Assembly: GCA_030753015.1 (NCBI GenBank)
Contig: JASMDC010000027.1
Span: 1-46,106, forward strand
Direction of reading: 5' to 3'
From: Candidatus Undinarchaeales archaeon
Lineage (GTDB): Archaea > SpSt-1190 > JASMDC01
DNA length: 46,106 nucleotides
Made by a program: the position numbers and the translations under genes. This document shows positions 5,817 to 34,196 of this stretch, one piece after another. The notes beneath the pieces are model-generated. The model was given only the letters and a program-made list of their open reading frames with translations. It ran no database searches and was not told where the DNA came from. How positions within the stretch are numbered: the first letter of the stretch is position 1; each line of letters begins with the position of its first letter.

Positions 5817-6536
5817 GTGGCCGAGGACAAGAAGGGTCCGGTGGCGCTGCTCTTCTCGGGCGGCCTCGACTCGACGACCGCTGCCCTGCGCCTGTCGGAG
5901 ACGCACGAGCGGGTACATCTTCTCACGTTCTCCCGCGGGTACGGCCACTATTTCCTGGACACGCCCGGGCGAAGGGCCGATGAGCTGCGGAAGGCTGTCG
6001 GCGACCGGTTCGAGTACGAGCTCGTCGACATCAGACCGCTGTTCGAGAAGGTGGTGCTCCCGACGATAGTGGAGGACTACAAGAAGTACCGCTCCGGATT
6101 CGTGTTCTGCCTGGGCTGCAAGGTGTGCATGCACGCACAAGCGGCCGCCTGGTGCCGCGAGCACGACGTGCGCTTGGTGGCCGACGGTTCCTCGGGAGAC
6201 ACCTCCGTGTTCGTGGAGCAGCGACCGTCGACGCTCAAGCTCATCATCGACTTCTACCGTGAGCACGGGATCGAGTTCTTCACCCCTGTGTTCGAGCAGA
6301 CCCGGGAGGAGAAGCGCCGGTTCCTCAAGACCAAGGGTGTCGGCATGGGCACGCGCATCGGCGACAGGCACGTAGGCGTCCAGCCCAAGTGTGTGCCCGG
6401 TGAGCTCTACTACCTGCCCACCGTGCTGTTCGGCATCGCGCCCAAACACGAGAACGAGGCGATCGCCGAGTTCTTCGCCGAGAAGGCCGCTCTGGCACGG
6501 GAGGTCCTCGGGCTCGATGTGGACGAGGGACCTTAG
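5817..6536 (+). CDS. PP-loop adenine nucleotide alpha-hydrolase (QueC-like)
   Basis: LLFSGGLDST PP-loop and CLGCKVCMH cysteine motif. Lacks the QueC C-terminal CGxCxxC, so it is not called queC. Confidence 0.75.
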   Translation: MAEDKKGPVALLFSGGLDSTTAALRLSETHERVHLLTFSRGYGHYFLDTPGRRADELRKAVGDRFEYELVDIRPLFEKVVLPTIVEDYKKYRSGFVFCLGCKVCMHAQAAAWCREHDVRLVADGSSGDTSVFVEQRPSTLKLIIDFYREHGIEFFTPVFEQTREEKRRFLKTKGVGMGTRIGDRHVGVQPKCVPGELYYLPTVLFGIAPKHENEAIAEFFAEKAALAREVLGLDVDEGP

Positions 6537-8311
6537 CCCCGCGGCGGAGATACCTGGTAGAGGGCGTGCTCGCGCACGTTGCCCGCAGGCTCAACGAGCT
6601 CTGGTGGCACGATGACCCTGTCCAGGAGCATGAGCTCGAACTCATCGCGCATCGCCACCGCGCCCGGATCGCTCCCGCCGCTGTTGTCGTAGAGGTACAC
6701 GCAATTTTCTCGGGCGAGCAGCGAGGTCACGTCACTGCGGAGGCCCGCCTCGGTCCCCTCGAGGAAAGAGTGAGTGCCGGGGACCACGGGATACCTCCCC
6801 CACAGGGTGCGCGTGCGCATGGCCTGGGGGCCCACCAGGTAGCACCCTCTGCCCACCATGCGATCCCATCCATCGAACGTGCTCTCCTCCAGGGCAACGG
6901 CCTTCCGAATGGATCGTGGGATATCGTCAAAGGGGGCCACGTGAGGGTAGAGCACGGTGATGACCACGGCACAAGTGATGGCCAGGGCGACCAACCTGCG
7001 GCGACAGGCACTCTCTGTGCGCCATGCGGCCCAGAGGAGGGTGAGCAGGGGCAGGATCAAGTGGAGGGTCGAGAGCACCGACCTGGTGCTGTCGGGCAGC
7101 TCGTGCCCGAACATCGGCCCGTATGCGAATGGCAGGTGCGCCAGGCCCGACAGGACCACGACGGCCTCCAGATGGAAGAGGCGTCCGGGGAGCGCGAGCG
7201 CACCCGCACCGCAGGCCAGGGCGAAGGGTACCGAGAGCCCGAGCATGTACCGGGGGGTGAACGCGGGCATGTTTGTTAGGAGGTAGAGGATGAGCCGTGT
7301 CCCCATCCAGCAGGCCACGAGCAGGCCTCCGGGCGCGTGCATCCGCAGCAAGAGCATCCCGCCCATCAGGGCCAGAGCGGTGAACAGCCAGGGCTGGAAG
7401 TAGCCGTCGAACCAGTAGGTGATGTACCAGACGTTGCGGGGGACCGAGCTGGGATCGAGCAGGCTGGAGGCGTTCTCGCCACCAAACCGCGTCTCGCCCC
7501 AGTCGGTGAAATGCGGGGCGATGAGCACGAGAATCAGGAGCCAGGGCACAAGCGGCGGTCGAGCGCGCTTGCGTCCCCACCAGTACACCACAGACAGGGG
7601 GGCAAGCGCCAGCAGGTTCTCGTTCTTGATGGTGACGTGAAGAGCGATGGACGCTGCCGCCAGCCATGCCGGCCCTCTCCTTCCCGTCCTTACGTGGAGC
7701 ACGGCCGCCAGCACTGCGAGCACCTCGGTGAGGATGGAGAGCACCTCGGAGAGCCCCTTCGCACCGAAACGGACGTGCATGGGTAGGAGCGCGATCACCA
7801 GTCCGGCCACGAGGGCCGAGCGCCTGTCCTTCGTGAGCAGGTAGGCGAGCATGTACACACAAGCAACGGTGGCCGTCCCGCCCAACACACCCACCGCCCT
7901 CACCGCCATCCCAGAGAACCCTAGGAGCACAGAGGCAAGGGACAGGACCAGGGGGTAGCCCACTGGAAAGTACGTAGCGAACTGCTGACATTCCCCCCTC
8001 TCCCCGATAGGGTAGTAAAGGTCGAACAGGAGGCGCTGGCCCATGCTACCGGTGGAGCAGATGGCGTTGAGCCGGTGGTGGACCAGGCCGTCCGCCTGGT
8101 CGAGGAAGAACCCCTCCTCCATCCCGGGCACGGCATGGTAGGGATTCCCGGCACGCACCGTGAAGGCGAGTAACAGGAGCAGGAACAGGGCGCGTCGCTC
8201 CCCGTGCCCCCTGGGAAGGATCGAGCGCAGCTCCCGGCGGGAGGCCGCCAGCGCCCCGGCGAGCAGGAGAAGGTTCCCTAGGGCGAACGGGAGCGCTAGG
8301 GGCGACGGCAT
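6533..8311 (-). CDS. GT-C membrane glycosyltransferase (ArnT/PMT-like), group-1 paralog
   Basis: Multi-TM; acidic pair MEE in loop 1; YFPVGYP, LLPMHVRF and SEV motifs; C-terminal extracellular domain. Confidence 0.8.
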   Translation of the reverse strand: MPSPLALPFALGNLLLLAGALAASRRELRSILPRGHGERRALFLLLLLAFTVRAGNPYHAVPGMEEGFFLDQADGLVHHRLNAICSTGSMGQRLLFDLYYPIGERGECQQFATYFPVGYPLVLSLASVLLGFSGMAVRAVGVLGGTATVACVYMLAYLLTKDRRSALVAGLVIALLPMHVRFGAKGLSEVLSILTEVLAVLAAVLHVRTGRRGPAWLAAASIALHVTIKNENLLALAPLSVVYWWGRKRARPPLVPWLLILVLIAPHFTDWGETRFGGENASSLLDPSSVPRNVWYITYWFDGYFQPWLFTALALMGGMLLLRMHAPGGLLVACWMGTRLILYLLTNMPAFTPRYMLGLSVPFALACGAGALALPGRLFHLEAVVVLSGLAHLPFAYGPMFGHELPDSTRSVLSTLHLILPLLTLLWAAWRTESACRRRLVALAITCAVVITVLYPHVAPFDDIPRSIRKAVALEESTFDGWDRMVGRGCYLVGPQAMRTRTLWGRYPVVPGTHSFLEGTEAGLRSDVTSLLARENCVYLYDNSGGSDPGAVAMRDEFELMLLDRVIVPPELVEPAGNVREHALYQVSPPRG

Positions 8312-8329
8312 GGTCAGTGGGACGGGCCT

Positions 8330-8369: not shown

Positions 8370-11105
8370 TCACCCGCCATTCGACGAGAATGAGAGCCTG
8401 CCGACCAGGGCGTCGCCGGACATGATGGAGAGGGCGTCCGTGCCCAGCTTCATGTCGCGGGGATCCCCGCCATCCACCGTGACCCGGGCCCCGGCGGTCC
8501 CGGGTGGCAGGACGAGGACCAGTCCGTCCTCCCCAGCATCATCCGGGACGAGGTGGAGCGTGCTCACGACGTGGTCGGGCACGGCGGAGTTGGACCGGGT
8601 GGCGATGTCCACGGTCAGCACGTCGCCCTGTCGCCCGAGGGAGAGGTGCACGGGAGGGCCCTTGACCCGGGCGATCACCTCGTTGAGCACCGCGGTCGCT
8701 TTCCGTTCATCTCTCCGGTCCAGGAGCGCGTTGAGGAACCACACCTCCCGTCCCCCCACCTTCCGCCGTAGCAGCAGCGGGATCCCGTCGCCGTAGATCC
8801 AGACCACCTCGGCACCCCGCATGAGCCCGGGTACGGTCCTGCCGGCTATGCCCTCGGGGCGCGATGGCACGTCACCCTCCAGCATGAAGGGGCCAGGCAG
8901 CACCTCGCCCGTGGGGAGCCGGACCGCGGACAGCCCGCCGAGCACGCTGGCCAATTCCGGGCTCTCAGAAACGTCACCGAGGACGAGGAGGATGGGCACG
9001 TGCGGACCCGTGGCCTCCAGCACCGCAGTGAGCCGTTCTTCAATCTCCTCCGGCGCCCTCCCGTGGACACTCTCGAGCAGGATGAGGTTCGGTGGCGGCC
9101 TGTCCCGGTCGTACGGCGGATCGGCCTGGCAGTGCTGGTTGAGGGTGAGCAGGGTGGTCCACTGCCAGATGTAATCTGCGTTCATCACGAGCCCGTCAGG
9201 TCCGTCCACGCCCAGCACCACCTCGGCACGATCGGGCCCGGCGCTTCCCAGGGCCTCCCCCACGAAGATCCGGCAGGAGAAATGCTGGTGCCGGTCGTCA
9301 TTGAAGGTGAGGATGTCGTCCCACCTGAACAGGCGGAGGTCCGGGTCCCAGACCCGGTGCTTTGTGAAGAAGGCCTGAAATGGCCGGGTCCCGCCCGGGA
9401 GGAGCGATACTCCCGTCCACAGGGCACGCTCCCGTGCGCGCTCGGCGTCGTCGAGTTCGAACTGGGGACGCGCGGACCGTCGGTCGTCAGCAGGGAATTC
9501 CGTCCCTGCCAGCGTATTGAGGGACGCCGCGACGAGGATGGACGCCACGCATACCACGGCCAGGTCCCGCCGTCGGTCCCCGTCCGCCGCCAGCCTGGTG
9601 AGGCCGGCGACCACCCACACCGCAGGGATGAACAGGAGCAGGAAGGAATAGGTCGTCCTGTCAGCGTCCCAGTCGGTGATGAGCCCCATGAACGAGAACG
9701 CTGGTACGAACCACAGGAGGAGCAGGAGCGACGCCCGCCGCCTGGCCGTTAGCAGGGAGAGAAGGCCGAGGAGGCCGACGGCGGACAGCACGATGCCGAA
9801 CACGTTCAGGAATACGAGGCCGAGCAGTACGAACGTGGGATAGGGCATCCCGATGGCACTGACGAGCGTGTGGTGGAAGGGCCAGTTGAGGAGGAGATAC
9901 GTGCTGAACGACCTCCCGAGGAGGGGGAGGGTGTGCTCCGTGAGCACAGCAATGTCACCGAAATGCAGCTCGTTGGCCAGGATGTCGCCGAACACGTACT
10001 GGTGCCAGAACAAGTACGGGAAGAGCGCGATAGTGGCGCCGACAACGAGGAGGGCGATTTGTGTTGCCCTGCGGTCTGATGGTCGCGAGATGAGGAGGTA
10101 TGCAACAAGGGCGGGCGCCGACACGACGGTCATGTGCCGCACTCCCAGCAATGCACCGAGCACGAGCCCCGACGCGAAGGCCCTCCTCCCTGCCCAAGGT
10201 CCTTCGTCGAGCACCAGGAGGACCGCTGTCACCGACAGGAACAGACCAGCGAGGTTCTCGTTGTGAGTGATGGCATAGCTGACCACCGGGTTGAGCACGA
10301 TGATGGCCGAGACGAGGAGCGAGGACCAGTGGCTGTCGGAAAAACGGCGCAGGAGGATGTAGGTCCCGAGCATGCAGAGAGCGCGTGTTAGGAGGAAGAA
10401 CACATGGAAGCCGAAGTAGCGTAGCGCCCGGGCATAGGGCGCCATCAGGACGGGATAGCCCAGGTGCGCGTTGAGGAAGTAGGCTATGCGGAAGGGCTCG
10501 TCCCCCCGGTCCATCCTTTCCTGCATGAGCCCGGGGATGACCGAACGGATGAACGGGCACTCATCCTCGCCCGGGCACGTGGTGACGATGTCGCCGGGTA
10601 GCGACCGCGGTGGGGGGAGCTCCGCGATGACATCACCGTTGACACGACAGCGCTGGGGCAGGCCCAAGAGATAGCGCTCCCCTTGGAACGAGCACCGGCT
10701 GTGGAGCATCGAGTACGATGCGTCGTACAGTGACCAGTGGACGCCCACAACGATGAGGAGCGCCACCAGGAGGGTGGCGCCGTGCACAACATCGTCGTAC
10801 CCAAGTGACCCGGATCCCGCAGTCGCTCTGCCGGAGGATGCCGGGATGTACCATGCGGTCACCGCGATGATTGCGGCGGCGGCGAGCATGAGAAGCATAC
10901 CCGAGACGTACGTGTCGGTCAGGAAGGCCAGTGATGCTGCCAGGGTGGCCACAGTGACGGTGCCGAGGACGGGGACGAGGAACACGGCCTCTGCGCGGGT
11001 GCGCGAGCGGGCGAGCGATCGCTCCAGGAGGATCCCTGGGATCAGAACGGTCCAGAGGAGGAACAGCGCACCCCGGACCAGCTCGGTCAGCACGGCCGCG
11101 CTCAT
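8370..11105 (-). CDS. Large GT-C-like membrane glycosyltransferase with C-terminal soluble domains, group-2 paralog
   Basis: Multi-TM; shares LLGVR, PYLFWHQYVFG and LNWPFH..LV...PYP.FV motifs with 24165-26327. ATG overlaps the upstream TGA (ATGA). Confidence 0.7.
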   Translation of the reverse strand: MSAAVLTELVRGALFLLWTVLIPGILLERSLARSRTRAEAVFLVPVLGTVTVATLAASLAFLTDTYVSGMLLMLAAAAIIAVTAWYIPASSGRATAGSGSLGYDDVVHGATLLVALLIVVGVHWSLYDASYSMLHSRCSFQGERYLLGLPQRCRVNGDVIAELPPPRSLPGDIVTTCPGEDECPFIRSVIPGLMQERMDRGDEPFRIAYFLNAHLGYPVLMAPYARALRYFGFHVFFLLTRALCMLGTYILLRRFSDSHWSSLLVSAIIVLNPVVSYAITHNENLAGLFLSVTAVLLVLDEGPWAGRRAFASGLVLGALLGVRHMTVVSAPALVAYLLISRPSDRRATQIALLVVGATIALFPYLFWHQYVFGDILANELHFGDIAVLTEHTLPLLGRSFSTYLLLNWPFHHTLVSAIGMPYPTFVLLGLVFLNVFGIVLSAVGLLGLLSLLTARRRASLLLLLWFVPAFSFMGLITDWDADRTTYSFLLLFIPAVWVVAGLTRLAADGDRRRDLAVVCVASILVAASLNTLAGTEFPADDRRSARPQFELDDAERARERALWTGVSLLPGGTRPFQAFFTKHRVWDPDLRLFRWDDILTFNDDRHQHFSCRIFVGEALGSAGPDRAEVVLGVDGPDGLVMNADYIWQWTTLLTLNQHCQADPPYDRDRPPPNLILLESVHGRAPEEIEERLTAVLEATGPHVPILLVLGDVSESPELASVLGGLSAVRLPTGEVLPGPFMLEGDVPSRPEGIAGRTVPGLMRGAEVVWIYGDGIPLLLRRKVGGREVWFLNALLDRRDERKATAVLNEVIARVKGPPVHLSLGRQGDVLTVDIATRSNSAVPDHVVSTLHLVPDDAGEDGLVLVLPPGTAGARVTVDGGDPRDMKLGTDALSIMSGDALVGRLSFSSNGG

Positions 11106-12211
11106 GGCCCTCTCACGTCCCGCCCGTCGTCGCATTCCCTAGCACCGAAGGCGAGCCATGGGTAGAGAGGGGGCCAGAACCGGCAGGCATTGGACAGGTC
11201 CGTCTCGTGAGTGCACCAACACTCGCCGCGGGCGATCTCCTCGCACACCTCTATCGCCTTTTCGCTCATCCACACCCGACCGAAGTCGTACCCCTCCTCC
11301 CGCAGGTCGCCCAGGGGCCGGTCCAGCATCTCACAGGGGTACACGACGCCCCGCTCGGTGAGCACCGCCTCCAGGAGACCGGCGCGACAGGGGGCCACAC
11401 GCTTGTGTTCGCTGTACGCCCAGGTCACCGCGCGTGAGAGCAGGTCAGGTCGGTGGCCGAAACCGCGGGGGTACCGACCCTGCTCGCGCACCAGGGTGAA
11501 GGCCCGCTCCACCTCCTCGGGCGACAGGCCCAGCACCTCCGGATCTCGAGGGTGGGGCCGGGCGAGGGTCACCGAGAAGGTGGGGCTGTTCCACGGCGGA
11601 CGGGACAGGAGCTGCAGAGTATCCTCCACGACGTGGACGTTGAGGCGAGAGAGAGTTAGGTTGACGGCCACGTCGAGGCGCGGTTCGCGGCGCGCGAGCT
11701 CGTCGAGGCGCCAGCGGGTGTGAAGGAGCTTGGAGTAGGCGCCCGTGCCGCGGATGGCATCGTGCACCTCCTCCGGTCCGTCCAGAGAGAGGTTCACCCG
11801 GAGCCGTGCGGGACGACATGTGTCAAGCACCTCGGACACGGACCGTTCCACGCGATCTGGGAGCAGACCGTTGGTCGGGAGGTTGATTACCTCGGTGCTG
11901 CACGATCGGACGAAAGGCTCCACCAGCCCGGCCAGGTCGTCGCGGAGCGTGGGCTCACCACCGCTGAGCAGGAGGAGCGGGAGCCGGGGAATGGTAGCAG
12001 CGATTCGCTCGACCTCGTCCGGCGTGAGCTCCTTGGACGTGTCGGCCGCATCGGCCTCTCTCCAGTAGAAGCAGTGAGGGCACCGTGCATTGCATCGTGC
12101 GGTAACGAAGAACGTGAGGTACACGGGCCACGACGTGGTCAGAAGCCGAGAGTAGCCGAGCGCGAGGTAGCGCAGGCCAAGGGTGCGTCGGACCAGCTCC
12201 TCACCGAGCAT
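11102..12211 (-). CDS. Radical SAM protein with SPASM/twitch domain
   Basis: CNARCPHC, SGGEP, TNG and SLDG motifs; C-terminal C.AG...GxVYPCE...CxC. Confidence 0.92.
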   Translation of the reverse strand: MLGEELVRRTLGLRYLALGYSRLLTTSWPVYLTFFVTARCNARCPHCFYWREADAADTSKELTPDEVERIAATIPRLPLLLLSGGEPTLRDDLAGLVEPFVRSCSTEVINLPTNGLLPDRVERSVSEVLDTCRPARLRVNLSLDGPEEVHDAIRGTGAYSKLLHTRWRLDELARREPRLDVAVNLTLSRLNVHVVEDTLQLLSRPPWNSPTFSVTLARPHPRDPEVLGLSPEEVERAFTLVREQGRYPRGFGHRPDLLSRAVTWAYSEHKRVAPCRAGLLEAVLTERGVVYPCEMLDRPLGDLREEGYDFGRVWMSEKAIEVCEEIARGECWCTHETDLSNACRFWPPLYPWLAFGARECDDGRDVRGP

Positions 12212-12297: not shown

Positions 12298-14067
12298 CTA
12301 TTGTTCGCGGGGGGATGATACGCGATAGAGGGCAAGGCCCTTGAACACGGTCATCTCCCCGGCGAACTCCATGGGAGCTGTGAGGTATTCGATCGTCTCC
12401 AGCCGGAAGGATCCGTGCATCATCAACGAGGTGCTCGGCTCATTTCCCTTCTCCCATACCTGCTCGTATAGGTAGACGCAATGGTCCTTGGCCAGAAGGG
12501 AAGCGACGTCCTCGCGCAGCTCGGCATCCACGTTGGGGACGGACCGGGGGGATTCGCCCGACTTGCCCCGGGAGTCGGCCACGATGCGCCGGCCCCACGC
12601 GGATCGGGTGTGGCCGGGGGCGATGACCACCATATAGCACTCCCTGCCCACCAGATGTTCCCACTCCTCGATGGTCCGTCCCTCTAGGGATATGGCCTCC
12701 CTCATGAGGCGGCCAGCACCGTCCGTCACGGTGACGGCCGGGTATAGGGTGGGGACGAGCAGGGCCCCCGCGGCGATGGTCGCGAACAGTACGGCCCGCT
12801 CCCGCCCCCGTGCCATCCACGCGGCGCACATTAGTATCCCCATGGGGATGGCCAGGTGGAGCGCGTAGAGCAGCGACCGTGTCCCGGCCGGGAGCTCCAG
12901 CCCGAACACCGGTGCGTAGGCGAACGGCAGGTGCGCCGCGCCGGACAGGAGCACGGCGGCCACCACGGACCCGGCGGCGAGGGACCGCCCACGCGCCCCC
13001 GCGCCACATGCCATTGCGAAGGGCACGGAGAGCGGCAGCATGTACCGGGGAACGAAGGCGCCGAAAGTGTGGAGTAGGTGGAGCGCCAGACGCACCCCCC
13101 ACCACGCGGCCACCAACCGGGCGAACGGCGGCGGCAGGCACCACATAGCGATGCAGCCGAGCAATGCCAAGGCGGTGAACAGGTAAGGATTGAAGTAGCC
13201 GTTGAACCAGTACTCAACGTAGTGGAAGTTCGCAGTGATCGACATGGGATCCATCCTTGTCGAGATGGGCTGGTCGCCATAGGTGGTCACCCCCAGGTCG
13301 GCGAAATGCGGCACGACGAGCACCAGCGCCACCAGCCAAGGGAGCGGGGACGGACGCGTGCGGACGTGCTCCCTCCCCCACCAGTAGACCACGAGCATGG
13401 GCACGATGGCCAGTGGATTCTCCACCCTGACGGTGACGTGGAGGGCGAGGCTGGATGCGGCCAGCCATCCAAGGGCGGACCTGCCCGTCCGGACGTGGAC
13501 CACCGCTGCCAGCACAGCAAGGCACTCCGTCAGTACGGAGGGGACCTCGGCGAGGGTCACCGACGCGAACCGCACATGCATGGGAAGGAGGGCGAGCACC
13601 AAGGCCGCCACTAACGCTTCGTCGTGGTCCCGGTCGAGCTGACGCATGAGAAGGTAGACGCACGCCACGGTCGCCGTCCCACCCACCACTCCGATCAGCC
13701 GAGCCGCGACATCGGAGAACCCGAGGAGGACGTATGCCAGGGAGAGGATCAGCGGATAGCCGATGGACTTGAAACCACCGAACCGTTGGCAATCGCCCAT
13801 CTCCCCCAGGGCGCATATGACGTTTAGATGGTGATGGACGAGGCCCTCGGCCTGGTCGCGGAAGAAGGTGTCGTCCATCCTGGGGACGGGGCGGTAGGGA
13901 TTGAGAGAGCGCACTCCGAAGGCCAGCAGGAGGATGAGGAGGAGGGCGCGACGCTTCCGGCCAGAGCGCGGGAAACGGTCCGCCAGCTCCCGGCGCGACG
14001 CGGCCAGCGCCACGGCGAGGACGAGGAGGTTCGCCAGGGCGAACGTGAGCGCCAGTGGCGAAGGCAT
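12298..14067 (-). CDS. GT-C membrane glycosyltransferase, group-1 paralog
   Basis: Starts MPSPLAL like its paralogs (start moved from 14220); MDD motif, IGYPLIL, LLPMHVRF. Confidence 0.8.
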   Translation of the reverse strand: MPSPLALTFALANLLVLAVALAASRRELADRFPRSGRKRRALLLILLLAFGVRSLNPYRPVPRMDDTFFRDQAEGLVHHHLNVICALGEMGDCQRFGGFKSIGYPLILSLAYVLLGFSDVAARLIGVVGGTATVACVYLLMRQLDRDHDEALVAALVLALLPMHVRFASVTLAEVPSVLTECLAVLAAVVHVRTGRSALGWLAASSLALHVTVRVENPLAIVPMLVVYWWGREHVRTRPSPLPWLVALVLVVPHFADLGVTTYGDQPISTRMDPMSITANFHYVEYWFNGYFNPYLFTALALLGCIAMWCLPPPFARLVAAWWGVRLALHLLHTFGAFVPRYMLPLSVPFAMACGAGARGRSLAAGSVVAAVLLSGAAHLPFAYAPVFGLELPAGTRSLLYALHLAIPMGILMCAAWMARGRERAVLFATIAAGALLVPTLYPAVTVTDGAGRLMREAISLEGRTIEEWEHLVGRECYMVVIAPGHTRSAWGRRIVADSRGKSGESPRSVPNVDAELREDVASLLAKDHCVYLYEQVWEKGNEPSTSLMMHGSFRLETIEYLTAPMEFAGEMTVFKGLALYRVSSPREQ

Positions 14068-16089: not shown

Positions 16090-16132
16090 GACGGTAAGAT
16101 GAGCCTGAACCTTCAAATAGGCTTCGGCGACA

Positions 16133-26429: not shown

Positions 26430-27587
26430 ATGGGTGAGACTGGGAGCGGGAAGAGCACCGTTGCCCTTCTCAAGTGCGAGGAGTATGATGAAGAGAACGT
26501 GCTCTCGACGGTCCGCCGTTCCGTGGACCTCTTGGGAGGGATGAAGACCTTCGTCGGGAACGGCCAGCGGGTGCTCCTCAAGGTCAATCTCCTCCGCGGG
26601 GACCTACCTGAGCGGGCGATCACCACACATCCTGCAGTGGTCCGTGCCGTGACACTCCTTGTCCAGGAGGCTGGTGGGGAGGTCGTCATCGGCGACAGCC
26701 CCGCGGGGCCCAACAGCGTCATGCTCCTGCGACGTGCCTACAAGCAGAGCGGATACGAGAGGGTCGCAAAGGAGACGGGCGCCTCCCTGAACGAGGACCT
26801 CTCCTACGGGCTGGTACCCTGTCGGGGCGGGCACCTGATCAAGGAGCTGGACATCCTCAATGCTGTGGAGAGCGCTGATGTGGTCATCCCCCTCCCCAAG
26901 CTCAAGACCCACGTGCTCACGGGATTCACCGGCGCCACCAAGATCCTGTTCGGAGTGGTCCCCGGTGTCACAAAGGGAGCCTACCACCTTAAGCTCAAGG
27001 ACGTGGACCAGTTCTCCCATATGCTACTGGACATCGTGGCCCATGTACAGGCGCCCCTGTACATCATGGATGGCGTCGTGGCCATGCATGGGGACGGCCC
27101 CGGCGCAGGTGATCCGTTCCCCGTAGGTGCGATTCTCGCCGCTGCCGATCCCGTGGCCATGGACCGAACGGCCGTCGCGCTGGTGGGTCTGGTCCCGGAC
27201 CGGGTCTCGACCCTGACCGTTGCCGCTGACCGCGGGATGGGTCCCGCGTCACTGGACGACATCGATGTGTTGGGCGACGGGCTGGACGCGTTCTCGATCA
27301 CGGGGTTCCGCCCCGCTTCCGCGACCTCGAAACTAGGTAGCAGGCTCCCAGGCATCGTGCGTCGGTTTGTCCTTAGACAGACCGTTGCCTCGCCCTACGC
27401 CGGCCCCAAATGCATCGGATGCGGCGTGTGCGCAGCTGCTTGCCCCGTCAAGGCCATCACCATCACCGACAAGCGTGCGCACATGGACCTGTCGACGTGC
27501 ATCAGGTGCTACTGTTGCCATGAGACCTGTCCCGAGCAGGCGGTGGAGCTGGACCGACCACTGCTGTCACGCGTTCTAGGTTGGTAG
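26430..27587 (+). CDS. DUF362 domain protein with C-terminal 2x[4Fe-4S] ferredoxin
   Basis: VLLKVNL, TTHP, PKLKTH, TGATK and DGVVAMHGDGP motifs; CIGCGVCAAACP and CIRCYCCHETCP. Confidence 0.9.
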   Translation: MGETGSGKSTVALLKCEEYDEENVLSTVRRSVDLLGGMKTFVGNGQRVLLKVNLLRGDLPERAITTHPAVVRAVTLLVQEAGGEVVIGDSPAGPNSVMLLRRAYKQSGYERVAKETGASLNEDLSYGLVPCRGGHLIKELDILNAVESADVVIPLPKLKTHVLTGFTGATKILFGVVPGVTKGAYHLKLKDVDQFSHMLLDIVAHVQAPLYIMDGVVAMHGDGPGAGDPFPVGAILAAADPVAMDRTAVALVGLVPDRVSTLTVAADRGMGPASLDDIDVLGDGLDAFSITGFRPASATSKLGSRLPGIVRRFVLRQTVASPYAGPKCIGCGVCAAACPVKAITITDKRAHMDLSTCIRCYCCHETCPEQAVELDRPLLSRVLGW

Positions 27588-28551: not shown

Positions 28552-29706
28552 TCATGGCAGAGCACCCGTGTCGCGCAGGATCGCATCCTCACGCTCGAAC
28601 ACCGCCTCGCGCCCATAAGGTGCTGCAGCCTGGCGGTTCACCGCGCCCATCCTGGCTGCGAGCTCCGGATTATCGGCCACACGGGCCAATGCCGTCCGTA
28701 GCTTTCGCGGCGATCGCGGTTGCACAAGAATACCCCCTTCGCGGGGGAGCACGTTTGCGATGCCCTCGACGTCAGTGGCCACCACCGGCAGCCCTGCGCC
28801 CATGGCCTCGATGAGGGCGAAGGGCATCCCTTCCTCCTCGGAGGCCATGGCGAACACGTCGCCTGCGGCGAGCACGTCGGGCACCTCGCTGGAGGGGACG
28901 GCGCCCAGGAAAGTTACGTCCGCGCCCTTCTTATCGGCCAAGGCCACGAGGGCATCGCGCTCCGGACCGTCGCCGCACGCGACCAGCCGGATGCCTGAGA
29001 GCCCGGCCACGGCGCTGACGAGGTCGTCCACTCGCTTGATCTCGGCCAATCGGCCAACGAACACCACAAGGCGACCGTCCTCTGGAACGCCGTGGCGCTC
29101 GACCAGCCGATTCCGCGCTGCTGCGCGGTCGGGTGCTTTGTCGGGGATGTCGACCCAGTTGGGGAGGACCTCGACCTGGCCCGGGCGGGCGCCCTGGGCC
29201 TCGAGCCGCTGACGCATCAGGTCGGTGCTGGTGACGATGCGGTCAGAATGCCGCACGACCATCCCGTACACCAGTGAGGCGAACGGACCCAGGAGAGGGG
29301 ACCGGTGTCGGCGCATCTGGCCCAACCAATCGTACTCCAGGGAGAGCACCACTGGAGGGTGTGAGCGGACACTGGCGAGCCCCAATGCCACGGGGACGAT
29401 GCCCACGGGACCGTACACACGAACGGCGGTGAGGGTGGACGCCAGCCGACGCACGGCCGCAGCACCGCTGAGCACGAAACCGGGGTGTGAAGGGCCCACG
29501 GGCAGGTGGATCACGCCTTCTCCGAGCTCGTCGCTCATGTCCCGCTCGTCCGCGCTGAGGAGCACCACACGGTCGTACAGTTTCCGGTAATGGTCGACCC
29601 GCGCGCGTACAAGCTTGTCGAACACGCCACGCTCGCATCCCTCCTCGAGGCGGCAGTCGGTGGAGTACACCAGGAGCAGTGTCGAGGTCGACGACGTACC
29701 GGCCAT
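28552..29706 (-). CDS. Glycosyltransferase family 4
   Basis: VFVGRLAEIKR, GDGPER and EEGMPFALIEAMGAGLPVVAT motifs. Confidence 0.92.
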   Translation of the reverse strand: MAGTSSTSTLLLVYSTDCRLEEGCERGVFDKLVRARVDHYRKLYDRVVLLSADERDMSDELGEGVIHLPVGPSHPGFVLSGAAAVRRLASTLTAVRVYGPVGIVPVALGLASVRSHPPVVLSLEYDWLGQMRRHRSPLLGPFASLVYGMVVRHSDRIVTSTDLMRQRLEAQGARPGQVEVLPNWVDIPDKAPDRAAARNRLVERHGVPEDGRLVVFVGRLAEIKRVDDLVSAVAGLSGIRLVACGDGPERDALVALADKKGADVTFLGAVPSSEVPDVLAAGDVFAMASEEEGMPFALIEAMGAGLPVVATDVEGIANVLPREGGILVQPRSPRKLRTALARVADNPELAARMGAVNRQAAAPYGREAVFEREDAILRDTGALP

Positions 29707-29759
29707 CACGGGCACATGTCCCACGAAGATTTATATTGCCTTCGCGGCCAGTTGGTTGC

Positions 29760-30860
29760 ATGGCCAGGCCCGCCAGCGGTGTCGACCGGCTCGGTACCCT
29801 CGAGAAAGCCCGCTTCCTCGCTAGCGGCCTTGTCGAGTCCTCGCGTGTGGGCCTTGACCGTCTGAAAGGATGGGAGCGCCCACGATTCCTTATGAACGTG
29901 GTCACCTGGCGGTGCAACGCCCGATGCGTGATGTGCAACATCCCCCGCCGTCACGACCCGAATGAGGAGCTCGGGCTGGACGACTACCGCCATATCCTCG
30001 AGGACCGGCGGTTCTGGCGGGGTCTGCGGGCCATGAACGTCACCGGTGGCGAACCGTTCCTGCGCGAGGACCTGCCCGACCTGGTGGCGCTGTTCGCCGA
30101 GGGCTGTCCCGGTCTGGAACGTATCGCCTTTTCCACCAATGGTATGCTAACCGACCGTGTCTCGTCCACCGTGAAGGAGGTGCTTGAGCGGGTGCGTGTA
30201 CCCATTGACGTCACAGTGAGCCTCGATGGCGTGGGCGAGGTCCACGACCGCATCCGTGGAGTGGAAGGTGCCTTCGATCGGGTGATGGCCACCGTGGACG
30301 CGCTCCTACCCCTTGAAGAGCCCGGACGGTTCCACCTCTACGGCCAGTGCACTCTCTCCCAGGCTAACATCTCAGGCTGGCGCGAGCTGGAGACTTTCGC
30401 TGGTGAGCGGGGATTCCACGTATCGCCGGGTATCTCGGCGTTCCAGGACTCCTACTTCGATAACGCCGACAAGGAGGCCGAGCTGGCGCTCACCTCCGAG
30501 CAGGTGCTCGACGTGTTTGACCGACCGACCGCACGCAACCACTTCATCCGCCGTCAGGTGCGCGAGCGTGAGCGGTCACTCCCATGTGGGTGCGGCGCCG
30601 GGTCTTTCGAGCTCTACCCCAACGGCGACGTCTACCTCTGCTACCAGACGAAGCCGGTGGGGAACGCCCTCGAGCAGGGCATCACGGAGGCGTGGACGTC
30701 CCCCGAGGCGGCGAAGGTGCGCAAAGCCATCGGTACCAGGAAGATGTGCGGTGCATGCTTCTGGTCGTGCGACCTGGCCACCGCGGTGAAGGGGGACCTC
30801 GGTTCGCTGGTACACATGGGCACCGCCCACATCCGAGCGAAGCTCGGTCCCAAGGCGTGA
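29760..30860 (+). CDS. Radical SAM protein with SPASM/twitch domain
   Basis: CNARCVMC, TGGEP, STNG and SLDG motifs; C...GDVYLC...CGACFWSC. Shares a bidirectional TATA (29729-29737) with the GT4 gene. Confidence 0.92.
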   Translation: MARPASGVDRLGTLEKARFLASGLVESSRVGLDRLKGWERPRFLMNVVTWRCNARCVMCNIPRRHDPNEELGLDDYRHILEDRRFWRGLRAMNVTGGEPFLREDLPDLVALFAEGCPGLERIAFSTNGMLTDRVSSTVKEVLERVRVPIDVTVSLDGVGEVHDRIRGVEGAFDRVMATVDALLPLEEPGRFHLYGQCTLSQANISGWRELETFAGERGFHVSPGISAFQDSYFDNADKEAELALTSEQVLDVFDRPTARNHFIRRQVRERERSLPCGCGAGSFELYPNGDVYLCYQTKPVGNALEQGITEAWTSPEAAKVRKAIGTRKMCGACFWSCDLATAVKGDLGSLVHMGTAHIRAKLGPKA

Positions 30861-30908: not shown

Positions 30909-31643
30909 ATGAAGATAGCATTCGACGAGTTCCATAAGGACAAGAAGTATTTTTCTATCGACGATGATGACCAGAACGGGTACGAGCAGCTGGGAGATTT
31001 CCTCAAGGGAAAGGGTATCGAATGTATCCAGTCCACGAATCCCTTAACGTCCATTCCCGCTGATGTGGACGTGCTCGTTATCCCCTTCCCCAAGCGGAGG
31101 TTCGACGGGTCCGAGGTCAAAGAGATCACCGCCTTCATCAAGGAGCGGGGCAAGGGACTGTTGATGCTCTCCGAGTGGGGGGGTATCTTCGACAACGTCG
31201 AGAACCTCAACCAGATGGCTATCAACTTCGAGATCAAGTTCAATCCCGACCGGGTATGCGATTGGGAGAACCGGATCCAGATCCCCTTCAAGTCCAAGGC
31301 ACACGCGTTCTACATCAAGGGTTTCTCGCAGCACTACCCGTTCACCAAGGACCTCAAGGAGCTCGTGTGCATCTCCGGCAGCTCCCTCAAGCCCGCCAAC
31401 CAGGGCATGATCGCCGCTTGGGCGGGCGAGCGCTCTTGGAGCGACGAGGACGGTGACTCATCCTATGACGAGGGCGAAGCGTTCGGGTACGTGCCCATCG
31501 TCGTCGCCAATGTGTGTGGTGACGCACAGGGACGTGTTGTCTGCTGTGGCGATGCGTCGCTCCTGGCCAATGCCCAGTTCAAGGAGTCCGAGCACCAGAA
31601 GTTCGCCCATTCCCTCTTCCAGTGGCTTGGCAAGGAGCTTTGA
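30909..31643 (+). CDS. GIFT (GldG/IFT52-like, DUF4350-type) domain protein
   Basis: IAFDEFH, DVLVIPFP..F...E..I..F...G.GLL and GRVVCCGD motifs. Confidence 0.75.
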   Translation: MKIAFDEFHKDKKYFSIDDDDQNGYEQLGDFLKGKGIECIQSTNPLTSIPADVDVLVIPFPKRRFDGSEVKEITAFIKERGKGLLMLSEWGGIFDNVENLNQMAINFEIKFNPDRVCDWENRIQIPFKSKAHAFYIKGFSQHYPFTKDLKELVCISGSSLKPANQGMIAAWAGERSWSDEDGDSSYDEGEAFGYVPIVVANVCGDAQGRVVCCGDASLLANAQFKESEHQKFAHSLFQWLGKEL

Positions 31644-31654
31644 ACGCTCCACCC

Positions 31655-32185
31655 ATGGACGTTGGCCGCGATGCCGAGCGGCGGATGCTGCTCGAACTGT
31701 CGCCCGAGAGGCTCATCGACCTGCTTCTAGCTCAGACGCGGGACCTCTGGGCAGTGGACGGACTGTATTTTCTGGGCATCGAGGAGCGGTACGGTACTGA
31801 GGCCGCGACCGATGTGGACCGCCAGGTGTGGGGAGCAATGGGACGCATCGAGGCATCACGGCTCCGGCGGGCGCTCGGTATCGAGGGCAACGACCTGGCG
31901 ACCATGCTGACCGCGCTCCGGTACACCAGCTGGATGCTGGACCTCGAGCACAAGGAGCTCGAGGTCGAGGAGGACCGTGCTGTGCTCCGGATCACTTCTT
32001 GTCGCACTCAGCTCACGCGACGGAACAAGGGCCTTGGGGAGTTCCCGTGCAAGCCTGTCCGCTACGGGTACCTTGCGGCCTTCGCGGGCGCGTTCTCGTC
32101 GGACATCGAGGTACGGTGCCTCCAATGCCCACCCGGTGAGCACGACGACGACCTATGGTGCGCATGGGAGTTCGTGCAGAGATAG
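31655..32185 (+). CDS. DUF6125-like / V4R-like Cys-containing protein
   Basis: WAVDGLYFLGIEERYG...D..VW, C..Q..R..KGL..FPC and C..CPP......WC.WEF motifs. Confidence 0.75.
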   Translation: MDVGRDAERRMLLELSPERLIDLLLAQTRDLWAVDGLYFLGIEERYGTEAATDVDRQVWGAMGRIEASRLRRALGIEGNDLATMLTALRYTSWMLDLEHKELEVEEDRAVLRITSCRTQLTRRNKGLGEFPCKPVRYGYLAAFAGAFSSDIEVRCLQCPPGEHDDDLWCAWEFVQR

Positions 32186-32232
32186 TAGGTCCCACAGGAG
32201 CCCTTTAGAGCAGCAACGAGAAGAAGAGAGAG

Positions 32233-32255
32233 CGGGTCCCCGTTGGGGGGACCCG
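32233..32255 (-). terminator. GC hairpin followed by a pyrimidine run (minus strand) after the DUF350 gene
   Basis: cgggtcccc-gttgg-ggggacccg, then ctctctcttcttctc on the minus strand. Confidence 0.45.
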
Positions 32256-32276
32256 ACGCGAAGCCATCGACCTAGT

Positions 32277-32522
32277 TCAACCAGTGAGGACGGCGTGGGA
32301 CACGATCCCCAGGGTGATGACCACGGAAGCGAGCACGATGGCGACAGCCATGTTGCCCTTCTCCAGCTCCTTCATCTCCTCGAGACCGGGTGTGGCGGCG
32401 TCAAAGATCTTGAACGTTGCCGGGATGCAGAGACCGAGAGCGATACCACCCACGAGCACCCACGCGACCGCGAGGACCATCTGGGTGACGGTCTGTACTA
32501 TGTCAATATTTCCAACGACCAT
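32277..32522 (-). CDS. DUF350 family small membrane protein
   Basis: FD..TPG.....EL.KGNMAVAIVLA pattern. Confidence 0.8.
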   Translation of the reverse strand: MVVGNIDIVQTVTQMVLAVAWVLVGGIALGLCIPATFKIFDAATPGLEEMKELEKGNMAVAIVLASVVITLGIVSHAVLTG

Positions 32523-32657
32523 TTTAATGACCTTAGAAGCAGGTGGGATAGGTATCCTTTAAAGCCTTTTGCCCTCCGGTCGACGAATCGGGTCTATTCA
32601 ACATATAACGTTTGGGTGACATCTCTACCACGCGGCCCCGATATAGATGGTGACCTC

Positions 32658-34196
32658 ATGGGACTCCCCTTCCTCGTACCCCGTGTCCTCTCCCTCGCGC
32701 TCGTTCTTCTAATCTCCCTCCTCGTCCACCTCCGCCGTGAGATCGAGGCCGCCCTGCCCCGCACGGCCAAGGGCCATCGCTCCCTCCTGGCTGTGGTGCT
32801 CGTGCTCGGCCTAGTGCTCCGGCTCAACGGTCCCTTCGCCCACGCGGTGTACATGGACGAGTGGAGCTATCTCGAGGGTGCTCGCACCCTCCTCCTCACG
32901 GGACGCCATGAGCTCTGTCGGGACGGTATCGTGCTCCAGTGCGCTGTGACCGGGGGAACATCAGATCCAACTGGCTACCCACTGGCAGCTGCTATGACGT
33001 TCTCCCTGGCGGGAGTGGGTGCAGGCCAAGCGATGGTGCTCAATCTGGCTGCAGGGATCGCTACCATTGGTGCGGTCTATCTCCTCGCTCTTGTCCTCCT
33101 TCGTCGCCCTTGGGCCGCATTGGCCGCCGCCATCCTCATGGCGACGCTCCCTCTCCACGTGCGCCACTCGTCCACCGCCGGCACCGAGGTAGTGTCCCTT
33201 TTCATGGTCACGGTGGCGCTCCTATGCGCCGCTCTCGTCCCCCTGATACCGCGTAGGACCACCCTTGGTGCGGCCATACTCACCGCCATACTCGCAGTGT
33301 CCGTCCGGCCCGAGAATCTCCTCGTCCTCCCCCTGGCCGCCCTCTTCGCTGCGAGGGGGTCAGGCCGTCGTCTGGTCCGCAGTCCGGTCGCCGTGCTGGC
33401 GACAATAGTTCTCGTGCTGCCCTTGGTCAGCAGTCGAGCGGGGGCCGCTGAAGCCTGGTCGTTCTCCCTGGCGTACGTAGCGGGGAAGATCAATTACCTT
33501 TACTTCTGGGCAGGGCTCACCACCCACCTCACCCCACTATTCCATACACCCGTGCTCGCCATCCTGGCCCTGGGTGGCGTCTGGGAACTTCGACGTCGGG
33601 ACCGGGCAACCCTGGGTCTTCTCACGACGTGGTTCGGCTCGTTCTTCGTGGTGTACCTTGCATACGTGCTCTCCGCGTCGTACCGCTTCATGCTGACCTG
33701 CTATCCCCCCATCCTCCTCCTGGCCGGCCTGGGAGCGGAGGGTGTTGCCAATCGAGCAGGTGGTTCAAAGGGTGGCGCCCTTGCACTGGCCGCCCTCCTC
33801 GTGGCGGTCGTGCCCGCCCTACCAACGGGGCTCGATCCCGGGGACCAGCACCACGTGTTCCAGCCCGAGGTGGACTTCCTCGTGGCCGCAACACGGCACC
33901 TCCCGCCGGGGTGCACAATCGTCACGTTCAATCCCTTCCTGGTGACCTTTGTTACGGATCGTCCGGCCTTGGACATCGGCTTGGGAGAGGTCGCCTTTGA
34001 TCGGTCCAGCCGGGGTGGATGCCTGGCGCTCTTCGAGGACTCCTTCTGCTCCTGGCGCCCCAACGAGAATTCCGATCCTGAACGTTGCGATTTCTACCAT
34101 CGTAACTTCGAGCTGGAGGAAGTGCGTAGTGCCGTTAACTCACGAACGAAAACGTCGGTCAGCCTTTCTATCCTTAGCCCTAGGACGGGAAGCTAA
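32658..34196 (+). CDS. GT-C membrane glycosyltransferase (more distant group-1 member)
   Basis: MDEWSY, C.DG....C, PTGYP, LPLHVRHS and VRPEN motifs; ATG at 32658 preceded by a ggtga SD-like sequence. Confidence 0.82.
   Translation: MGLPFLVPRVLSLALVLLISLLVHLRREIEAALPRTAKGHRSLLAVVLVLGLVLRLNGPFAHAVYMDEWSYLEGARTLLLTGRHELCRDGIVLQCAVTGGTSDPTGYPLAAAMTFSLAGVGAGQAMVLNLAAGIATIGAVYLLALVLLRRPWAALAAAILMATLPLHVRHSSTAGTEVVSLFMVTVALLCAALVPLIPRRTTLGAAILTAILAVSVRPENLLVLPLAALFAARGSGRRLVRSPVAVLATIVLVLPLVSSRAGAAEAWSFSLAYVAGKINYLYFWAGLTTHLTPLFHTPVLAILALGGVWELRRRDRATLGLLTTWFGSFFVVYLAYVLSASYRFMLTCYPPILLLAGLGAEGVANRAGGSKGGALALAALLVAVVPALPTGLDPGDQHHVFQPEVDFLVAATRHLPPGCTIVTFNPFLVTFVTDRPALDIGLGEVAFDRSSRGGCLALFEDSFCSWRPNENSDPERCDFYHRNFELEEVRSAVNSRTKTSVSLSILSPRTGS

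Follow-up and report, generated by a model that had tools for sequence, protein, structure and literature searches.

Sugars carried on membrane lipids can be modified before a glycosyltransferase of the C fold (GT-C) transfers them, a sequence of events for which ArnD and DprE1/E2 provide the precedent. The Arn (ArnB/C/D/T) and three-component Gtr systems, as well as the mycobacterial decaprenylphosphoryl-arabinose (DPA) system (DprE1/E2, Emb/Aft), combine a membrane glycosyltransferase of family 2 (GT2) with a PMT_2-type GT-C. Oxidative tailoring of envelope molecules in strict anaerobes is largely uncharted, and the locus described here bears on this question. It lies in a 46,106-nt stretch of DNA (hereafter the window), which is the whole 46-kb contig JASMDC010000027.1 (C37) of a Candidatus Undinarchaeales archaeon whose genome of 3.85 Mb comprises 117 contigs (98.9% complete, 5% contamination, mean guanine-plus-cytosine (GC) content of 60.3%). 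A gene for ribosomal protein L31e marks this genome as archaeal. Between positions 5,817 and 34,196, genes for GT-C and radical S-adenosylmethionine (SAM) enzymes are interleaved with two gene pairs of the U32 superfamily, which recall UbiU-UbiV, the O2-independent ubiquinone hydroxylase of Proteobacteria. The oxygen donor of UbiU-UbiV is prephenate (PMC10990095, accessible part).

The reading that we favor, and to which we give an even chance, is that neighboring operons of this anaerobic archaeon tailor a membrane-lipid-linked sugar without O2 and then transfer it to surface acceptors in an Arn/Gtr-like manner. A first-pass annotation of the window had likewise proposed a tailored lipid-linked moiety moved by GT-C enzymes; the radical SAM/GT-C part of that proposal is supported by the data below, while its U32 part is plausible only. 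Ten of the eleven items that it named were recovered where it had placed them, the exception being a 'membrane hydrolase'. Its description of the region as a ~28-kb island is too strong, as the sister species G006 (same genus, 3.6 Mb) is syntenic across the whole contig, flanks included, with 80-97% protein identity outside the GT-C array. What does hold is that this array, at 5817-16696, has an unusual composition: its GC content of 65.9% is the highest of the contig and exceeds the 99th percentile of the genome's 10-kb windows. The region is made up of several operons, not one. Compared with Arn, Gtr and DPA, it differs in its archaeal host, in having up to 6-7 GT-C paralogs per locus, and in the candidate tailoring enzymes, which here are radical SAM proteins (of the SPASM and cobalamin-binding, or B12, types) together with U32 Fe-S proteins, kinds of enzyme that all three systems do without.

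A recurrent GT2/radical SAM/GT-C cassette

From position 18880 to 6533, the minus strand carries U32 pair a (g14, g13), a gap of 196 nt, and then g12, g11, g10, g09, g08 and g07. Genes were scored as GT-C when they reached the 26.1-bit cut-off of the PMT_2 model (PF13231), or showed homology to this family, and in addition had a polytopic topology (8-13 hydrophobic segments). All six GT-C-like genes counted in the first-pass annotation stood. Four match PMT_2 in Pfam, namely g07 (6533..8311, minus strand; 27.8 bits, ~8 transmembrane (TM) segments), which ends the long minus-strand operon, g10 (12298..14220, minus; 43.5 bits, ~10 TM segments), g11 (14326..16155, minus; 48.5 bits, ~9 TM segments) and g27 (32136..34196, plus; 28.8 bits); g07 is 44-51% identical to g10, g11 and one copy on contig C29. 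The other two, g08 (8370..11135, minus; 921 aa) and g20 (24165..26327, minus; 720 aa), are 13-TM proteins with no Pfam match, and they join the group through profile comparison, in which their family (10 copies in the genome) aligned with the PMT_2 family (22 copies) at an hhalign probability of 98.4% (E 9e-15, 253 columns). An NCBIfam model for a putative glycosyltransferase (LA_3751/LA_3752) gives g08 34.3 bits against a cut-off of 200, and the ESM Atlas feature and structure matches of g20, to RgtA/B/C/D-like and PMT_2 clusters, are leads only.

Within the array, g09 (11102..12211, minus) encodes a radical SAM enzyme (Radical_SAM, 57.1 bits) whose SPASM domain scored 17.1 bits, under the cut-off of 21.5, making the protein SPASM/twitch-like rather than a proven SPASM enzyme. 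In g24 (29679..30860, plus), which opens the plus-strand operon, both the radical SAM core (55.0 bits) and the SPASM domain (35.5 bits) exceed their cut-offs, with all NCBIfam matches well under theirs. The two radical SAM/SPASM genes reported earlier are therefore real in their cores, with the SPASM domain above cut-off in g24 only. Translational coupling of g09 to g08, also noticed in the first pass, was borne out, since the genes meet at an ATGA or overlap by 34 nt, depending on the g08 start.

Relatives of g09 (30-41% identical) were examined at 80 metagenomic loci, many of them on contigs of unnamed origin. Screens of GT-C neighbors by tblastn (2/80; 0/80 at g09 loci) proved too insensitive and were replaced by a screen with hidden Markov models (HMMs). 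This revealed a GT2 gene directly upstream, on the same strand, of the g09-family gene in 59 of the 80 loci. PMT_2 genes were found nearby in 19/80, or in 18/45 and 13/29 when only loci of at least 6 and at least 12 kb, respectively, are considered, and a recurrent 573-aa neighbor is itself PMT_2 by Pfam. B12 radical SAM genes occur in 30 of the 80 loci and genes for flavin adenine dinucleotide (FAD) oxidoreductases in 12. Nearly all GT2 proteins of these loci (52/54) end in one to four hydrophobic segments, which we take to be the architecture of the polyprenyl-phosphate glycosyltransferases GtrB, ArnC and DPM1. Canonical GT2-SPASM pairs are also present elsewhere in the genome under study, on contigs C29 and C38 as well as on C23, where one g08-like and two PMT_2 genes accompany the pair. 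Together, these data show that a cassette of GT2, SPASM radical SAM and GT-C genes, often with a B12 radical SAM gene, recurs in this archaeal genus and on many metagenomic contigs; to our knowledge, this is its first archaeal instance. Its recurrence points to an as yet uncharacterized use of radical chemistry in modifying lipid-linked sugars. In the literature covered, outside which most subscription journals lie, we found no description of this cassette, of the U32 clade presented below, or of a combination of SPASM/radical SAM enzymes with GT-C, ArnT or polyprenyl carriers. One of these metagenome contigs (L148, 2068-8300) bears two g09-family genes beside a homolog (42% identical) of the small partner of the U32 proteins, the sole such case in the 80 loci.

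The sister species offers a fuller version of the array. Its syntenic stretch (C1:271301-292851) contains seven copies of the g07/g10/g11 type, six of them 48-56% identical and one 75% identical to those of the window, which has three PMT_2 genes plus g08. No match to g08 was found in the syntenic stretch; in its place, upstream of the g09 ortholog, lie genes for a 333-aa GT2 and a 499-aa B12 radical SAM protein. Read along one strand, the sister operon consists of the U32a gene, its partner, g12, four GT-C genes, GT2, B12 radical SAM, an intervening stretch, SPASM and two more GT-C genes; in gene content, this is the cassette of the bacteria with a U32 pair added to it. The array has diverged next to other genes that are 80-97% identical, as would be expected if diversifying pressure acted on a surface structure.

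SPASM radical SAM enzymes such as MftC, PqqE and the sactipeptide and ranthipeptide synthases are typical peptide maturases, and g09 and g24 share with them the radical SAM core followed by a C-terminal SPASM/twitch region. The first-pass annotation had accordingly offered as its alternative a route to a peptide that is made by the ribosome and modified after translation (RiPP), in which the SPASM enzyme would cross-link a precursor peptide that is then hydroxylated, methylated and glycosylated. Matches to the NCBIfam models of ScmE, the mycofactocin maturase, WgkB, PapB and StsB point in that direction, but they reach 35-63 bits against equivalog cut-offs of 265-650. Moreover, the conserved neighbor of the g09 family in the 59 loci above is a membrane GT2 and not a small open reading frame (ORF), the intergenic gap ahead of g09 measures 86 nt, and the donors of GT-C enzymes are lipid-linked, with transfer taking place outside the membrane. 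No precursor peptide emerged from a screen of ORFs of 18-90 aa in 13 loci of the type B defined below (a set that leaves out this window, and in which some cluster heads may lie beyond the flanks), the eight largest conserved clusters being antisense shadows only. The analysis thus found no support for a RiPP route, which we hold to be very improbable.

U32 pairs resembling UbiU-UbiV

Both U32 pairs of the window consist of two adjacent genes that, like ubiU and ubiV in the described system, are coupled. Pair a comprises g14 (17723..18880, minus), encoding the large Fe-S subunit, and g13 (16893..17744, minus; likely start at the ATG at 17723), encoding the small one; pair b comprises g18 (22261..23358, plus) and g19 (23358..24158, plus), respectively, and g19 is 42% identical to g13. 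The junction is TGATG in both cases. Membership of g14 and g18 in the Peptidase U32 superfamily is clear (PF01136, 102.9 and 99.8 bits; gathering cut-off 22.4), and the partners are UbiV-like in fold, Cys motif and predicted complex, as set out below, so the claim of two U32 pairs stands.

The genome holds 12 U32 genes, of which one, on contig C56, encodes a 746-aa RlhA-like protein, and the other 11 encode ~360-aa paralogs that are 28-55% identical to one another (g18 and a paralog on C26, 55%). Seven of these 11 are followed or preceded by a gene for a ~270-aa partner; UbiU-UbiV differs in this respect from the present genome with its 11 large and seven small subunits. Grouping with characterized tRNA, rRNA or quinone hydroxylases, an outcome raised by the first-pass annotation, is not what we observed. 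NCBIfam scores were 77.4 and 85.2 bits for UbiU (cut-off 440) and 88.8 and 70.3 bits for TrhP (cut-off 534) in the two large subunits. In a tree of 74 proteins computed by a quick method under LG+G4 (59 partner-adjacent U32s from other genomes, the 11 paralogs, the C56 protein, and UbiU, TrhP and RlhA of Escherichia coli), the 59 and the 11 paralogs formed one clade of 70 members on a long stem of 1.26, with a Shimodaira-Hasegawa-like approximate likelihood ratio (SH-aLRT) support of 100. The three E. coli proteins fell outside, and the C56 protein grouped with RlhA. The clade thus appears to be new and set apart from E. coli UbiU, TrhP and RlhA, the 12-subfamily list of Kimura et al. lying outside this comparison. 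For seven of the paralogs, the sister-species counterpart was among the retrieved loci, and in each case the two group together with little branch length between them. The paralogs are old, being interspersed with bacterial lineages.

The homology of g14 to UbiU is nevertheless evident (hhalign 99.6%, E 1e-24) and extends to three of the four cluster ligands, as C169, C176 and C232 of UbiU align with Cys in 70/70 clade members. The fourth, C193, is not conserved and has no counterpart in the g14 alignment. Four extra Cys that UbiU lacks as conserved positions (C299, C302, C367, C372) are kept in 68-70 of the 70 members and could be the source of a fourth ligand.

The small subunit is matched by no profile model, with neither a Pfam U32 match (E up to 5) nor an NCBIfam match (E up to 0.1), which sets it apart from UbiV. 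Its Cys layout does resemble that of UbiV. C36, C193, C212 and C216 are invariant in 18 diverse sequences; over 84 sequences, C36, C193 and C216 remain invariant and C212 is conserved in at least 90%. The resulting motif, CX156CX18CX3C, has the far-upstream first Cys and the terminal CX3C of the UbiV motif, CXnCX12CX3C (bioRxiv 10.1101/587956, accessible part), with a spacing of 18 instead of 12. The AlphaFold model of the partner is of high confidence (predicted local distance difference test (pLDDT) 93, predicted template modeling score (pTM) 0.90), and the U32 entry 5d88 tops the Foldseek results by probability (1.00) and by TM-score (TMt 0.50). Since ranking by E-value put chitinase-like TIM barrels with TM-scores of 0.25-0.31 first, we relied on probability, TM-score and VIA re-ranking, in which 5d88 reached Z 11.9 and the next entry 10.6, a small margin over generic TIM barrels. 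From these models, the partner is predicted to have a U32-type TIM-barrel fold. Its sequence relationship to known U32 proteins is faint and weighs against an assignment to this family: alignment with the profile of the large subunit reached an hhalign probability of 78% over 104 columns of the N-terminal half only, and that with E. coli UbiV alone a weak 6.6% (E 0.0056). Comparison of the partner profile with PDB sequences yielded nothing meaningful, the best match being a short-chain dehydrogenase at E 0.049, and a sequence search of the PDB retrieved no solved complex of the UbiU/UbiV type.

Structure prediction for g13 and g14 together returned a complex score of 0.89, against 0.00 for the best of three controls; this value is reached by 58 of 80 solved complexes and by 2 of 110 mismatched pairs, counts that are rough because custom alignments were used. 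At least 85% of contacts are common to the runs, the partner pLDDT is at least 84, and the Cys regions of both chains lie at the predicted interface. We therefore predict that the translationally coupled U32 pairs form UbiU/UbiV-like heterodimers.

Genomic contexts of the U32 pairs and the proposed pathway

Loci with U32 pairs were analyzed as the best 80 of 380 confirmed stretches from species-representative genomes, including flanks of at most 10 kb to the left and right. The partner profile matches 2014 representative clusters at E up to 1e-3, and 607 at 1e-30 or better; the matches with names, all labelled hypothetical, belong to Chloroflexota/Dehalococcoidia, Bathyarchaeia, Xenobiia, Actinomycetota and Desulfotomaculia-type Firmicutes. 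Unlike UbiU-UbiV, this clade is found in archaea and many anaerobic phyla, and it is widespread in anaerobes. In loci of type A (Chloroflexota, Bathyarchaeia, Hadarchaeota and some others), a CCG/Fer4_8 gene and between two and four FAD_binding_4 genes lie upstream on the same strand, and genes for electron transfer flavoprotein (ETF) alpha and beta follow the pair. Type B loci (Omnitrophota, Planctomycetota, Verrucomicrobiota and unclassified bacteria) have an FAD amine-oxidase-like gene, DegT, SPASM and a zinc-ribbon (HMPTM-type) radical SAM gene before the pair, and two to five B12 radical SAM genes plus a GNAT gene after it, sometimes with GT2 and PMT_2 in the same co-directional run. One such operon (L091) reads B12 radical SAM, PMT_2, GT2, amine-oxidase-like, DegT, SPASM, U32, partner, four B12 radical SAM, GNAT, SPASM and amine-oxidase-like; two other co-directional U32-pair operons of Omnitrophota (L079 and L101) contain PMT_2 too. 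Type C loci (Thermodesulfobacteriota) present LipB/LipA-like genes and DnaJ, a context that is probably plain synteny. Three loci labelled Desulfonema/Pseudomonadota (L054, L058 and L062) carry the pair between methylmalonyl-CoA mutase-like genes and two BcrAD/BadFG-type ATPases, which points to anaerobic acyl-CoA or aromatic metabolism, not glycans. U32 pairs join arrays of GT2, radical SAM and GT-C genes only in the Omnitrophota-type operons and in the genus studied here.

This distribution lends itself to another explanation, namely that there is no single pathway. The U32 heterodimers would then be all-purpose modules for redox or hydroxylation reactions without O2, each with substrates of its own (soluble aromatics, cofactors, RNA), brought next to the cassette as expanded families gather in plastic regions, and the radical SAM and GT-C genes would serve a separate envelope glycosylation. 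It is favored by the company that pairs keep: FAD_binding_4/CCG/ETF genes in the Chloroflexota, Bathyarchaeia and Hadarchaeota, and elsewhere methylmalonyl-CoA mutase plus BcrAD/BadFG ATPases, or housekeeping genes. By HMM, PMT_2 occurs in only 3 of the 76 non-congeneric U32-pair loci and g08-type genes in none (0/76); the corresponding counts are 9 for GT2, 12 for SPASM, 15 for B12 radical SAM, and 7 each for DegT and FAD oxidoreductase. Three of five type A genomes, of completeness not known, gave zero PMT_2 matches, and the pair is therefore a portable module able to work without GT-C. The gap between U32 pair a and g12, the fast turnover of the GT-C array amid well-conserved neighbors, and its atypical GC content fit the same explanation. 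So does the abundance of the families in this genome (32 GT-C-like, 30 B12 radical SAM, 23 SPASM-like and 24 GT2 genes), which makes some adjacency expected by default.

Adjacency within the genome nonetheless exceeds that default, as four of the seven U32 pairs have a GT-C-like gene within 3 kb, compared with 0.36 expected (P ~2e-4 from 20000 random placements, in a test where the two window pairs, as well as kin loci, are not independent). Besides the window pairs, one on C32 sits beside a zinc-ribbon radical SAM, a B12 radical SAM, a g08-like and a PMT_2 gene, and C29:13636-24352 (L009) brings together four U32 genes, one partner, radical SAM genes and one PMT_2 gene (~50% identical to g10). 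A clade restricted to the genus, whose members have no partner genes of their own, is made up of three of these C29 U32s and a fifth copy near 48 kb of that contig. The pair on C62 neighbors DegT and two B12 radical SAM genes. Also at odds with unrelated modules are the Omnitrophota, an independent lineage in which one and the same co-directional operon encloses the pair along with PMT_2, GT2, DegT and radical SAM genes; the tree, in which the nearest non-congeneric relatives of both window U32s by path length belong to type B operons; and the sister species, whose pair heads an operon with the full GT2/B12/SPASM/GT-C cassette. PMT_2 matches (3-24, Pfam model) were present in all of five further type B genomes. 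In one of them (L109), PMT_2-like genes lie 3 kb (a weak match, under cut-off) and 14 kb upstream of the pair on the same contig and strand, and in another (L089) a single PMT_2 gene lies 17 kb from the pair. On balance, we consider the absence of a common pathway somewhat unlikely.

A second competing explanation retains the membrane and changes the substrate: the core of the archaeal ether lipids would be tailored, by methylation, cross-linking, desaturation or oxidation, with GT-C and GT4 enzymes adding head groups. Archaea are well known to have radical SAM enzymes that modify lipids. The zinc-ribbon radical SAM proteins beside U32 pairs (on C32 and in type B loci) score best against TrsS (206 bits) and the tetraether lipid synthase Tes (174 bits), and the B12 radical SAM neighbors match HpnJ, HpnR and a 'lipid biosynthesis B12-binding/radical SAM protein' model. 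UbiU/UbiV themselves act on a polyprenylated lipid (accessible parts of PMC10990095 and bioRxiv 10.1101/587956). These scores are, however, well under the NCBIfam cut-offs (Tes, 174 of 450 bits; for proteins of the related cassettes, HpnJ, 210/578; HpnH, 54/225; HpnE, 47-61/283), and the window has no Tes-like or B12 radical SAM gene. In addition, the g09 family has a GT2 as its conserved partner, and DegT proteins of the sugar aminotransferase-like kind occur in the cassettes, as do GNAT proteins; the DegT enzymes of related operons score best against the LegC, PseC and ArnB models, all under cut-off, a further likeness to Arn. Formation of hydroxylated glycerol dialkyl glycerol tetraethers (hydroxy-GDGTs) is reportedly the task of the AttH hydratase, going by the title of a preprint (bioRxiv 10.1101/2025.10.20.683597), and a role of the U32 pairs in this step was set aside on that ground. 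Tailoring of the lipid core is thus improbable in our view. Hopanoid clusters (HpnI/HpnJ/HpnH/HpnE) likewise resemble the g09-family cassettes in uniting GT2, radical SAM, B12 radical SAM and amine-oxidase-like FAD proteins, HpnJ being the best NCBIfam match of the B12 radical SAM neighbor; they were rejected as identification because every Hpn model scored well under its cut-off, and the present genes differ further in their archaeal host and in that no squalene-hopene cyclase context was seen.

In the lipid-linked sugar pathway that we prefer, a membrane-anchored GT2, supplied by the operon in the sister and by paralogous loci here, would load a sugar onto polyprenyl phosphate. Radical SAM enzymes, of the SPASM type in this species and additionally of the B12 type in the sister, would modify it at the cytoplasmic face, and the AsnB-type amidotransferase, methyltransferase and GT4 could add further decoration. 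After flipping, the fast-evolving PMT_2-type GT-C paralogs may move the sugar to different acceptors, be they the surface proteins g28 and g29 described below or lipids. By analogy with UbiU/UbiV, the U32 heterodimers would contribute an O2-independent, prephenate-using oxidation or hydroxylation, for which a ferredoxin, g21 with its DUF362 domain for example, may accept the electrons. Chorismate is the precursor of prephenate, and the genome has two matches to chorismate mutase, so prephenate can be made. Consistent genes surround another U32 pair, at C42:31461-36430, which lies on one strand between an Asp/Asn-tRNA synthetase-like gene and genes for a flavin mononucleotide (FMN) reductase, chorismate synthase and GT2.

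Several observations count against this pathway. The whole of it, product included, is read from genes. No GT2 gene was found in the window by Pfam scan and genome family count, a departure from Arn and Gtr that is made good only in the sister operon and on C23, C29 and C38. Unlike the Gtr system, moreover, the genome gave no match to the flippase GtrA (PF04138; E up to 0.1, in a genome 98.9% complete), flippases of the ArnE/F and Wzx types not having been searched for. The 196-nt interval means that U32 pair a and the GT-C array may be separate transcripts. The scarcity of PMT_2 among the non-congeneric pair loci has its counterpart in three of the five further type B genomes, which have no PMT_2 on the contig of the pair, and the commonest contexts of the pair are FAD_binding_4 with CCG and ETF, LipA/LipB-like genes with DnaJ, and Ham1. 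Co-occurrence of the families elsewhere, put forward in the first-pass annotation as a check, consequently holds for radical SAM with GT2 and GT-C genes and for the U32 operons of Omnitrophota, and fails for most U32 pairs, which lack PMT_2.

The U32 role is the weakest link, because the known substrates are aromatic or pyrimidine rings and most pairs of the clade occur in unrelated contexts. All characterized U32 substrates are ring carbons of these two kinds and not sugars (accessible part of PMC10990095), and no UbiT or quinone gene lies near the window pairs. That the heterodimer clade is an O2-independent, prephenate-using hydroxylase of a polyprenyl-phosphate-linked sugar or another lipid-anchored envelope precursor is accordingly a proposal that we rate as unlikely. 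If true, it would give U32 proteins a substrate class beyond quinone and RNA rings, and U32 heterodimers together with SPASM and B12 radical SAM enzymes would constitute an anaerobic toolkit, common to Archaea and Bacteria, for diversifying surface glycans installed by GT-C enzymes. The heterodimer would be a concrete case of prephenate-dependent hydroxylation beyond quinones and RNA, an extension raised in the U32 literature itself (accessible part of PMC10990095).

Other genes of the window and features of its host

At the left end of the region, g06 (5817..6536, plus) encodes the Cys-rich PP-loop ATPase of the first-pass annotation, a QueC/TtuA-like protein with SGGLDS and CxxCxxC motifs and five Cys. 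Its identification is borne out at a low score, since QueC reaches 22.3 bits against a cut-off of 22, the matches to DUF7411 and Asn_synthase are weak as well, and all NCBIfam matches fall well under cut-off; three paralogs reside on contigs C106 and C29. Between U32 pair a and the GT-C array, g12 (16133..16696, minus) overlaps g11 by 23 nt and encodes a 187-aa cytosolic protein with no Pfam or NCBIfam match, 96% identical in the sister species. Its family is found in archaea only, and its nearest ESM Atlas clusters, archaeal hypothetical proteins, provide a lead only.

Two genes diverge from the g14-g07 minus-strand run. The first, g15 (18898..19776, plus), encodes a class I SAM methyltransferase (Methyltransf_11, 60.3 bits) with an N-terminal Trm112-like zinc ribbon (Trm112p, 21.4 bits, slightly under cut-off), and the second, g16 (19924..21588, plus), a glutamine-dependent AsnB-type amidotransferase (Asn_synthase, 220.6 bits; GATase_7, 140 bits). 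They are followed by g17 (21630..22190, minus), a 186-aa protein with no Pfam match and 92% identical in the sister species, which may be a small metalloprotease as judged by the HEGYH (HExxH-like) motif near its C-terminus. Downstream of U32 pair b and g20, g21 (26430..27587, plus) joins a DUF362 domain (180.5 bits) to a C-terminal 2x[4Fe-4S] ferredoxin domain (Fer4 matches), an architecture compatible with a possible electron carrier; it has six paralogs in the genome. The GT4 gene, g23 (28552..29724, minus), matches Glycos_transf_1 (108.9 bits) and Glyco_trans_4_4 (44.8 bits), a family whose donors are nucleotide sugars. Pfam thus upheld the methyltransferase, AsnB, DUF362 ferredoxin and GT4 assignments made earlier, and the reported lack of nucleotide-sugar, flippase and quinone genes also holds among the window ORFs scanned with Pfam and NCBIfam.

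The 'membrane hydrolase' is another matter. The plus-strand ORF at 27754-28533 looks spurious and reads like a wrong frame, the opposite strand being occupied by two ORFs for small membrane proteins (27591-28049 and 28042-28506, minus) downstream of g23. The former encodes a 152-aa protein without a Pfam domain that has four homologs only, all in close relatives. A hydrolase of the YdjM/DUF457 family was considered and discarded, as PF04307 matches contigs C24, C58 and C31 and nothing in the window (E up to 0.1).

In the plus-strand operon opened by g24, g25 (30909..31643, plus) encodes a DUF4350/GldG-like protein of the GIFT, OST48_N-like kind (ABC_transp_aux, 51.3 bits; DUF4350, 43 bits; OST48_N, 21.5 bits, under cut-off), with 10 other matching places in the genome by tblastn. 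A second protein of this GIFT-domain, weakly OST48_N-like type is encoded in the window at 1861-2577 (plus). The weak likeness to OST48_N, an oligosaccharyltransferase subunit, in proteins encoded beside GT-C genes is intriguing. Next come g26 (31622..32185, plus), a DUF6125 protein (129.9 bits), and the GT-C gene g27, which may begin at either of two GTG codons (32136 or 32295), making its start uncertain; the long ORF that opens at 31977 runs into g26, and the alignment with the sister genome falls in two frames.

Beyond g27 lie genes for two surface proteins, g28 (34193-35026, minus), which has a linker rich in Thr and Pro and is anchored by a C-terminal TM segment, and g29 (34875-39296, plus), of 1473 aa with Pfam VWA and Ig-like domains; both are possible glycan acceptors. 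Farther along, at 39316-44435 (minus), CitF (545 bits) is encoded beside a two-subunit ATP-citrate lyase-like pair (citrate synthase/CoA-ligase domains plus an ATP-grasp subunit), which suggests a reductive tricarboxylic acid cycle or citrate cleavage in the host archaeon. On the other side, just outside the region, a TnpB/Cas12f-like IS605 OrfB gene (OrfB_IS605 and Cas12f1-like TNB; 2804-3982, minus) has a copy on contig C106 that is 89% identical at the protein level.

The host stands out among the 17 species representatives of its phylum, since only this genus, with two species, has genomes of 3.6-3.85 Mb and the other 15 range from 0.6 to 1.2 Mb. So large and metabolically rich a genome among tiny ones in its phylum and class looks odd, next to an estimated contamination of 5%. 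Elsewhere in the genome, ARAGORN identified a tRNA with a four-base anticodon (ccag) at C21:39278-39372 and a tRNA-SeC at C32:28602-28676.

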